DNA of 23,240 nucleotides from a virus: UHGV virus genome UHGV-0143097; one strand, written 5' to 3'. The notes below the pieces were generated by a model. That model saw only the letters and a program-made list of their open reading frames with translations. It had not been told where the DNA came from and did not search any database. Below, one piece after another: positions 1,447 to 3,375 of this stretch. The translations under genes and the position numbers were made by a program. The stretch's first letter is position 1. Every line of letters begins with the position of its first letter.

Positions 1447-1995
1447 TTAATTTCGCTGTCTGGATTGTTTATGTATCTTATGCAGCTCTTTAAAGCGTTC
1501 CATAAACATCCCGTAGGCATGACCCGGTGCCAGTGGAATCACGTTGAACATCTCTGTTGCCGGGATGCCTTCCAGTACAGGCCAGAAAGAGCCATCATCA
1601 AGCCCGAGATCGCGGCGTTCGGTTGCCAGCATGATGAGATCGGCATATTTCACGGGCGTACTCATAACCGGGGGTAACCCGTATTTCTCACGGATTACGG
1701 CGTCTATTTTTTCTTCCATTTGTTTATAGTCAGGAAGAAGGCGTTTCAGTGGTGCGGGAATGTCCTGGCAATACGCTTCTGTTGCATCATGCATTAACGC
1801 TTCAAAAGCAAATTCCTGCGGCACCAGCTGGCTGCAAAGAACCGCATGTTGGGCGACGCTGTAGAAGTGCGAAAGATGACCGGCAAAGCGACAGATATTT
1901 GAAAGGGAAACCGCGATATCGTTAATATCGATGTCGTCTTTATTTATCCTGTCATAATAAAAATGCTTCCCGGAAAAAGTTTTAATAAATGACAT
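1447..1995 (-). CDS. HD-domain phosphohydrolase (YfdR/YfbR-like 5'-deoxynucleotidase family)
   Basis: Conserved His and HD motifs (AGHLSHFY, ALMHDATEAY). Start chosen at the internal Met at 1995, preceded by GGAGA at good spacing; the ORF-track start at 2022 has no RBS. Confidence 0.65.
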   Translation of the reverse strand: MSFIKTFSGKHFYYDRINKDDIDINDIAVSLSNICRFAGHLSHFYSVAQHAVLCSQLVPQEFAFEALMHDATEAYCQDIPAPLKRLLPDYKQMEEKIDAVIREKYGLPPVMSTPVKYADLIMLATERRDLGLDDGSFWPVLEGIPATEMFNVIPLAPGHAYGMFMERFKELHKIHKQSRQRN

Positions 1996-2088
1996 TTTGT
2001 TCTCCACGTATATGCGCTGCACCGCGCTGAATTCTGGTAAAAAGAATCCCTCACCATCCGGCGATTATTGAGTAAATTACGTTTCCAT

Positions 2089-2110
2089 AAATGCCCCCGC
2101 AGGGGCATTT
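2089..2110 (-). terminator. Hairpin between the DUF2303-like and HD genes (possible attenuator or weak terminator)
   Basis: Perfect 9-bp stem AAATGCCCC / GGGGCATTT with a 4-nt loop; only a weak U-tract follows on the minus strand. Confidence 0.35.
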
Positions 2111-2122
2111 GCAGTAATGAAA

Positions 2123-2947
2123 TCAGGCGGTGAAAGTACCAATAAAGGTTTCTACTTTGCTGTCCTTGAATTTCTCAACAAGCAGATCACGAAATTCGTT
2201 AGCCATTTCTTCCTGCACCGCCTCCAGCTGAATAATGCGCAGAACCAGTACAGGACGATCGCCAGTGATAATACTGAGGCGTAATTTAAACGGACGTTCT
2301 TTCAGACCTTCAAACGGAACGCATTTAAATTCAAATGCCACTGGCATAATGTCTTTGGTCTTCGCTTCGACAGACTCCATCAGGGAGCGTTTGCCGCTGA
2401 AGTCATTATCTTCAAAATCAGCGGTCTGGTTTGCTTCAATCGTGATTTTACGGACAGCCGCAGCCGCTTTTGTTGCCTGAATAGCGTCACCATTAGCATC
2501 AAAGCCCACAAGATAGTCGGCCCAGTCTTCAATCCATTCTGCCAGTGACTTCTGGGAGTTACGCTCGCCGTTAACAGACAACAGAGCAGAGAACGGTGCT
2601 GTCTTTTTCAGTTTGAGTGTGGCGGTGTTATCTGCGTGACCTGGTTCATCAATAGTACCCAGGTTAAGCACACTGACGGCACGCATATTATCAGCATCGA
2701 TAAAGCAGCGGGTGCCTTCATCTGCAAGATCTTTAGAATAACGGGTAAAGTCATCGATGCTGGCAGTGGAAAGCGCACCACGGAAACGGAAGCGATTTAA
2801 ATTAAATTTTTCCAGATCATGAATGCGGAAATTCTCAGGCAATGCCACAGCATCGGCACCAATCTTACTGATAATTTCATTAACACCCTGAGCAGAAATA
2901 AGGGCATGGATTTGATTAATTGCGGTTGCGTCTAAGTTCTGAGACAT
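2123..2947 (-). CDS. Prophage accessory protein, DUF2303-like (YfdQ-like)
   Basis: 274-aa ORF co-oriented with the early operon; length and sequence resemble YfdQ of CPS-53-type prophages as I recall it. Confidence 0.6.
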
Positions 2948-3012
2948 AATAAGTCCTCACTATATAAAGATATTCAGTGATGAGATAAATAATCAGTTAA
3001 TTAAAAACGATA

Positions 3013-3375
3013 TTAACGACCTGCTGCGCGGAGTTTTCCGTCAGGTTCACCGGCAAGAGTCAGTAACTGTCCCTGGTCTTCCTGCAGAATAGTCAGGCGA
3101 CCACCGCGATTGACATACATCGGTGTTTCGGTGGTGTCTTCTTCGGAAATTTTCCCGCGGTTAGTCGGGCGAACATATGAGAGTTTGTGTTTGATTTTCA
3201 CACGGTTCTCATCAAATGGTTCGATTTCCAGGTTGAGTGAGACCTTACCTTTGGTTTTCGTGTTCATCACACCGGAAGCGACTTCACTGAGAACTGCGCC
3301 GATTTTGGTTTCAAATACGCCGCCGTCCAGCTCCCCGATAAATGCCTGCACATCAGTACTGCGTTCGCTAGCCAT
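3013..3375 (-). CDS. Small prophage protein (YfdP-like), 120 aa
   Basis: ATG at 3375 (MASERSTDVQ...) is preceded by GAGGAG. The 226-aa ORF-track version adds a Cys/Arg-rich N-terminal extension through a GC-rich segment and is unlikely to be real. Confidence 0.6.
   Translation of the reverse strand: MASERSTDVQAFIGELDGGVFETKIGAVLSEVASGVMNTKTKGKVSLNLEIEPFDENRVKIKHKLSYVRPTNRGKISEEDTTETPMYVNRGGRLTILQEDQGQLLTLAGEPDGKLRAAGR

Follow-up and report, generated by a model that had tools for sequence, protein, structure and literature searches.

The viral genome UHGV-0143097 was analysed over a stretch of 23,240 nucleotides (here called the window), and this account concerns three genes close to its left end together with the spacer separating two of them. 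In the order of transcription the genes occupy 3013–3375, 2123–2947 and 1447–1995, all on the minus strand, and their open reading frames (ORFs) have exactly the extent given to them in an earlier note made from the sequence alone. Under the names yfdP, yfdQ and yfdR they are already known from E. coli prophages, being orthologues of the set found in the CPS-53 (KplE1) element of E. coli K-12, and encode proteins of 120, 274 and 182 amino acids, respectively. The spacer between yfdQ and yfdR (1996–2122, minus strand) contains three hairpins, recognised by folding and in an alignment of 31 loci. The yfdR–yfdQ–yfdP block as a whole is positioned between the excisionase gene xis (1158–1418) and the repressor gene ymfK (4445–5119). 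The two neighbours of the HD-domain gene yfdR had been described as lacking an assigned function. The YfdP protein indeed has no family in the Pfam copy used, but both neighbours are named K-12 genes and yfdQ has been partly studied.

The genes and their products

The start of yfdR is an ATG at 1995 with GGAG 8 nt upstream, and the boundaries of the gene equal those of the RefSeq yfdR in an intact prophage (L002) discussed below. A longer version beginning with a GTG at 2022 is unlikely because this codon falls within a conserved hairpin. The protein and K-12 YfdR are identical at 167 of 176 residues (95%; E=5e-131), RefSeq uses the name yfdR for the same gene and 5'-deoxynucleotidase for the orthologue, and the match to PHROG 318, "deoxyribonucleoside 5' monophosphate phosphatase" (E=1.6e-108), is, like the family matches of the other two proteins, well outside what chance would give. 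The earlier assignment to the YfdR-type phosphohydrolases is thus confirmed. The nearest solved relative is Atu1052 (PDB 2gz4, E=7e-14), with which the residues of the metal-binding motif H...HD...D (H50, H69-D70 and D119) can be aligned. YfbR, the housekeeping 5'-deoxynucleotidase of E. coli (PF12917, NF003009, PDB 2paq), has the same fold of HD-domain metal phosphohydrolases and the same motif, but the sequence match is marginal (E=0.9 to PDB 2paq) and YfdR is closer to Atu1052. The YfbR-like Pfam score of 25.1 bits is just below the cut-off of 25.9, and the YfbR equivalog family NF003009 of NCBIfam is not reached (20.5 bits against a cut-off of 122). Judged by its sequence, the HD protein is YfdR, a distant relative of YfbR rather than its orthologue or a member of its family. 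The K-12 orthologue is reported to hydrolyse deoxynucleoside monophosphates (dNMPs) and to be homologous to YfbR in structure, its affinity for nucleotides being much lower (Zimmerman, 2008, as cited in PMC4776307).

YfdQ (99% identical to its K-12 counterpart) is a bona fide DUF2303 protein, as had been proposed. The PF10065 profile scores 309.7 bits (gathering threshold 26.6; E=2e-92), and the match is full-length, with residues 7–272 aligned to positions 2–269 of the 269 in the profile; the protein also matches PHROG 210 (E=1e-120). The structure of a homologue that is approximately 41% identical to YfdQ has been deposited as "YfdQ Protein" (PDB 9o7m, 36 chains, E=1e-44). The number of chains in this entry implies that YfdQ may form a large homo-oligomer. 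No publication mentioning the entry was found, and a YfdP profile search detected no relative of YfdP among its chains. Among the YfdQ residues that stay the same over the whole range of 25 to 99% identity are T61, G97, H104, E140, R166, S188 and R237, a pattern compatible with a binding or catalytic site; D141 is nearly invariant (at least 90%).

YfdP is 98% identical to K-12 YfdP and matches PHROG 204 (E=1e-49). Its homologues carry PF27127, a family newer than the Pfam copy used, so that the family match is read from the homologues and was not scored on YfdP directly. The conserved motif is PT.RGK..EE, and in the AlphaFold2 model a long helix precedes a meander of three strands. The family comprises 522 clusters at 50% identity, and the members listed are all small, stand-alone proteins. 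Three proteins in which PF10065 and PF27127 are fused (P0011, P0073 and P0160) were considered; they are E. coli fragments with 96–99% identity, likely to be artefacts of frameshift or deletion, and are not taken as evidence of interaction.

The yfdP–yfdQ pair and the separable yfdR

It had been suggested that the co-occurrence of the three genes be checked. For this the scan of viral contigs was uninformative, as it gave only identical E. coli copies, and the loci were therefore drawn from genome contigs: 80 loci, one genome per species, in which YfdQ identity ranges from 99% down to 41%. In each of the 79 loci with upstream sequence yfdP is found directly upstream of yfdQ, usually with a gap of 30–70 nt. 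The yfdR gene follows yfdQ in 60 of the 80 loci, being adjacent in most of them and separated by one inserted gene in six, and none of the ten loci outside Enterobacterales has it. In the phage records the picture is the same. YfdQ and YfdP have 184 and 180 matches, respectively, with near-identical counts per genus, including phages of Vibrio, Xanthomonas, Pseudomonas and Acinetobacter, whereas most of the 333 matches to YfdR are in unrelated phages of Bacillus, Caulobacter, Rhizobium and other hosts. On the basis of these counts the trio is not a single unit. It is composed of an obligate yfdP–yfdQ pair, always together, and an independently mobile yfdR, which is frequent but facultative and in many unrelated phages is present on its own.

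The separability of yfdR bears on the published work on the K-12 genes. Noguchi and Katayama (PMC4776307) recovered yfdQ-yfdR-yfdS-yfdT as genes that in multicopy suppress the over-initiation of replication; both yfdQ and yfdR were needed for suppression, together with yfdS or yfdT. YfdR was found to bind domain I of DnaA through Phe46, in competition with DiaA and DnaB, and oriC replication in vitro was inhibited in extracts over-supplied with YfdQRST (PMC4776307). Direct binding to DnaA is also the mode of action of the inhibitors lambda P, B. subtilis SirA and Dps, but none of these is related to YfdR in sequence or fold, and the effect of YfdR is known only from overexpression of the K-12 allele (PMC4776307).

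One could read these results as describing one machine of three or more proteins that stops chromosome initiation in the host: YfdR would block domain I of DnaA, YfdQ (in K-12 also YfdS or YfdT) would be the cofactor, and any link to recombination would be incidental. The joint need for yfdQ and yfdR in suppression and the inhibited extracts are what such a machine would predict. The distribution of the genes speaks against it: yfdQ is always accompanied by yfdP, a gene which that assay did not require, and yfdR is lacking beside yfdQ in 20 of the 80 loci as well as in phages of the Stx2a, Vibrio and Xanthomonas groups. Furthermore, yfdS and yfdT are absent from the window, and pull-downs revealed no tight binding between YfdQ and either YfdR or DnaA (PMC4776307). 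A single machine is therefore considered rather unlikely.

Hairpins in the yfdQ–yfdR spacer

The hairpin at 2089–2110 (H1), reported in the earlier note, lies as described there, after the second gene to be transcribed and before the third. It has a perfect 9-bp stem, AAAUGCCCC/GGGGCAUUU, closed by a 4-nt loop, and dominates the centroid fold of the 127-nt spacer (z = -2.47). Two more hairpins follow on the same minus strand. H2 (2051–2064) is listed as terminator-like and has the tail GGGAUUCUUU, and H3 (2012–2027), which has the conserved loop GUGCAG, is located just upstream of the ribosome-binding site of yfdR. The spacer is conserved in loci where the flanking proteins are only 55–75% identical, and it is present whether or not yfdR follows.

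Over the 31 aligned loci, pairing is possible in 91.7% of the cells, compared to 41–51% when the partners are slid. Nine pairs display compensatory change, and the covariation score was matched by none of 500 shuffles. In H1 pairing is kept across the 31 loci and compensatory changes are found in four of the nine pairs. Such changes indicate selection on the structure and not on the sequence alone. Together the three hairpins make up a covarying RNA element assigned to the 3' end of yfdQ.

A canonical terminator seems unlikely here. Five of the nine stem pairs of H1 are G-C, but its tail is UUUAUGG with the Us partly in the stem, which is no proper U-tract, and the terminator scan did not list it; H2 has a T-rich tail in the window, but most other loci have no U-run after either hairpin. 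At the end of the yfdPQ unit the element may instead terminate part of the transcripts, stabilise the RNA or control translation. As a candidate member of the STnc100 RNA family the spacer was rejected, its score of 19.8 bits being too weak.

Prophage context and possible roles

In enterobacterial prophages the genes are arranged in a common layout: repressor, a few small ORFs, yfdP, yfdQ, in part of the cases yfdR, then variable accessory genes, xis and int. Outside this setting the pair recurs next to recombination genes. The order is gam, recT, exo, ssb, yfdP, yfdQ in the Stx2a-type phage ArgO145; yfdP, yfdQ, orf36, erf, exonuclease, endonuclease, ssb in Xanthomonas phage CP2; Erf, YqaJ exonuclease, DnaQ-like exonuclease, yfdP, yfdQ, ssb in Vibrio phage 34E29.1; and YqaJ exonuclease, yfdP, yfdQ in Thalassomonas phage BA3. 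Hahella and Proteus prophages have yfdP, yfdQ and ssb (the gene of a single-stranded DNA-binding protein, SSB). Four unrelated phage lineages with different annealing-protein families thus place the pair in or against their recombination modules. For the Kistimonas and Hahella loci it was also supposed that a gene upstream of yfdP encodes an annealing protein, which Pfam did not bear out. The lambdoid recombination (Rec) modules, made up of Exo/Bet/Gam, RecT, Erf and SSB, have the same operon position as yfdP–yfdQ and abut the pair in several phages. In some phages, on the other hand, a complete Rec module coexists with the pair, and neither YfdP nor YfdQ has sequence, profile or fold likeness to an annealing protein, exonuclease, Gam or SSB. 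As an association, the recombination neighbourhood is the best available clue to the function of the pair.

Of 5426 complete E. coli genomes, 2455 (approximately 45%) carry at least 80% of the 1.9 kb cassette, in up to seven places per genome, and it is also found in phages SfV, SfIV and cdtI and in Stx2c-converting phages. In K-12 CPS-53, SfV, SfIV, ST64B, LLS and Stx2c phages the three genes precede the excisionase gene with order and orientation unchanged, and the proteins are 95–99% identical. Plasmids gave merely 23 matches, mostly to phage-plasmids or mislabelled chromosomes, and the cassette is therefore not a plasmid gene. The cluster has been described as common in the early-left operons of lambdoid phages, including those without a Rec module (PMC12315714). 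The K-12 yfdPQ genes have been treated as an operon under the control of SrsR; in the window SrsR boxes TCAGATTTTGC are not enriched (7 matches against 11 expected).

CPS-53 and the prophage in the window have only 1490–3394 in common (L001 9586–11490; 97.4% DNA identity), with the homology beginning inside the 3' end of yfdR and ending just upstream of yfdP. Since the block ends inside the gene, YfdR differs from the K-12 protein in the last six or so aligned residues (171–176) and at the extreme C-terminus. CPS-53 is an argW prophage, whereas here the block is found in a prophage of the e14 site (icd) with intE, xisE and ymfK; the yfdS and yfdT genes of K-12 are absent, and xis directly follows yfdR. 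The restricted homology identifies the cassette as a sharply bounded mosaic block moving among otherwise unrelated prophages with different integrases and attachment sites.

The slot between yfdQ or yfdR and xis (loci L083–L162) holds variable accessory genes. Those confirmed by Pfam encode an Rv2179c-like 3'-5' exonuclease (23 loci), DUF551 (YfdS) and a leucine-rich repeat protein; ParB-like, DGQHR-like, DpdA-like and DksA/TraR-like genes were judged from sequence only. The slot looks like a hotspot of gene exchange. Just past the integrase gene of two related loci there are partial matches to transfer-messenger RNA (tmRNA; L087 10723–10839 and L093 11669–11770), which make ssrA the probable integration site of these prophages.

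Over its first 5.4 kb the window corresponds to the left arm of a lambdoid prophage, in which the integrase, excisionase, yfdR, yfdQ, yfdP and repressor genes are all on the minus strand. The integrase gene (50–1177, minus strand) encodes lambda-type arm-binding and catalytic domains. It is followed by xis (minus strand; Pfam Exc, E=6e-12; xisE in L002), the downstream neighbour of yfdR in the same operon, and at the other end by ymfK (minus strand; the RefSeq name), which encodes a cI-like repressor of the LexA family (Peptidase_S24, E=1.5e-26). By megablast the same DNA, in the order intE-xisE-yfdR-yfdQ-yfdP-ymfK, is located beside icd in E. coli chromosomes, at the e14 attachment site, and the intact prophage next to icd in L002 is collinear with 112–5394 of the window. 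At 5392–5394 a deletion junction joins the immunity region to the 3' part of the tail sheath gene, and approximately 18 kb with the replication, lysis and head genes of L002 are missing. No complete E. coli genome of the collection has this junction. Because of the 18 kb jump into the tail sheath gene the prophage is regarded as defective: the host element is a defective, SfV-like lambdoid prophage of the e14 site with an 18 kb internal deletion.

A defective host element raises the question of whether the cassette is inert cargo, that is, leftover genes without a function in the host and hairpins kept only as joints between mosaic modules. Both the loss of 18 kb, including replication, lysis and head genes, and the discreteness of the block shared with CPS-53 would fit. 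Inert genes would hardly be expected, however, to keep three intact reading frames, or their families to stay intact across genera down to 25–45% identity; the compensatory changes keep the hairpins paired, and phenotypes have been reported for K-12 yfdQ mutants. Deletion of yfdQ causes sensitivity to methyl methanesulfonate and hydrogen peroxide, according to work of others cited in PMC4776307. Inert cargo is accordingly considered quite improbable.

Upstream of yfdP, a terminator-like hairpin with a T-run (4414–4433, minus strand) directly follows the repressor gene, and a promoter-like site comes after it (4405–4378, minus strand). The latter, TTGACA-16-CATAAT, has 11 of 12 matches to the consensus in a scan of pattern only and is likely to be the early-left promoter (pL). 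Two conserved phage ORFs that overlap on opposite strands, 3813–4058 (plus; PHROG 3311) and 3976–4272 (minus; PHROG 3195), sit between this site and an STnc100-like RNA element at 3511–3725 (minus strand), which itself lies between the candidate promoter and yfdP. The element matches the whole Rfam model RF02076 (1–206 of 206) with 45.6 bits and E of approximately 1e-7, narrowly missing the gathering threshold of 47. The STnc100/PasD family of small RNAs is prophage-borne (bioRxiv 10.64898/2026.05.13.724894), and the near-threshold, full-length match here is on the same strand as yfdP. RefSeq annotates the stretch in L002 as a frameshifted hypothetical coding sequence, and a Buttiauxella locus has a partial STnc100 match upstream of yfdP (L087 5402–5530).

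Since the repressor's terminator-like hairpin and a strong promoter-like site both lie upstream of them, yfdP, yfdQ and yfdR are assigned to a repressed lytic operon. The earlier note had placed them at the distal end of the early-left operon; they are indeed in that operon beside xis, but make up most of it, the operon being short. The note had also linked the genes to nucleotide-pool defence or counter-defence, which finds no support. In a cassette of this kind the HD enzyme would deplete or reshape the pools of dNMPs or of the triphosphates (dNTPs), with the neighbours as its partners, so as to keep out other phages or to oppose nucleotide-based immunity of the host. HD dNTPases are known defence proteins, and the HD fold, the dNMP phosphatase activity reported for the orthologue and a position typical of accessory genes agree with the idea. 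Against it, five proteins, all three of the cassette included, were compared with PADLOC-DB 2.0 and none matched a family at E<=0.01, and the genes are past the terminator of the cI-like gene, in a repressed operon with no lysogenic promoter. In addition, the enzyme is reported to act on monophosphates, for which its affinity is low, members of the YfdR family are common among virulent phages, and yfdP–yfdQ occur without yfdR. A defence or counter-defence cassette is consequently very improbable.

What appears to fit the data best is a combination of two modules, with yfdP–yfdQ as an accessory of recombination or replication, a separately mobile yfdR and a 3' RNA element, all in the pL operon; the odds for this combination as a whole are held to be about even. 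The operon would read pL, a 98-amino-acid ORF, the STnc100-like RNA, yfdP, yfdQ, the structured spacer, yfdR, xis and int. The analysis itself shows which genes these are, their order, their co-occurrence and the covariation of the RNA. From their neighbourhood we infer that YfdP and YfdQ would be produced soon after induction, as accessories to the recombination or replication of phage DNA. YfdR would be a separately mobile 5'-dNMP phosphatase of low affinity, with domain I of DnaA as a binding partner; both the enzyme activity and the DnaA binding are taken from the literature on the K-12 orthologue. There, YfdR and YfdQ in excess lower initiation at oriC, and in the phage YfdR would likely redirect the replication and nucleotide resources of the host to the virus. 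The three hairpins, we infer, would mark the end of the yfdPQ unit and set the relative expression of the gene that follows. In a more specific form, the pair would be an unrecognised two-protein accessory of recombination or replication modules which could supply or recruit the missing function and has its own RNA element of three hairpins controlling the downstream genes, and this is put forward as a tentative possibility.

Several points weigh against the two-module combination. YfdP and YfdQ have no known biochemical activity, and what lies beside a gene in an early phage operon says little about its function. The authors of PMC12315714 consider hidden recombination proteins unlikely, since in ArgO145 the cluster is found alongside a complete Rec module. 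In the work on K-12 yfdP was dispensable for the initiation effect, which moreover was seen only on overexpression, deletion of the genes having no initiation phenotype (PMC4776307). The low nucleotide affinity reported for YfdR casts doubt on its role as a nucleotidase. Finally, because the prophage is defective, the three genes may have no role in this particular host.

The finding as such adds little, since the genes already have names, are widespread and have been studied in part. Yet a cassette of which at least 80% is carried by some 45% of complete E. coli genomes still poses the question of what YfdP and YfdQ do. What is added here is an obligate pair with a facultative yfdR, its recurrent placement in recombination modules and a covarying RNA element, all of which serve as handles on the function of the two proteins. 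These handles may help to explain the recombination-dependent growth of lambdoid phages that have no Rec module.

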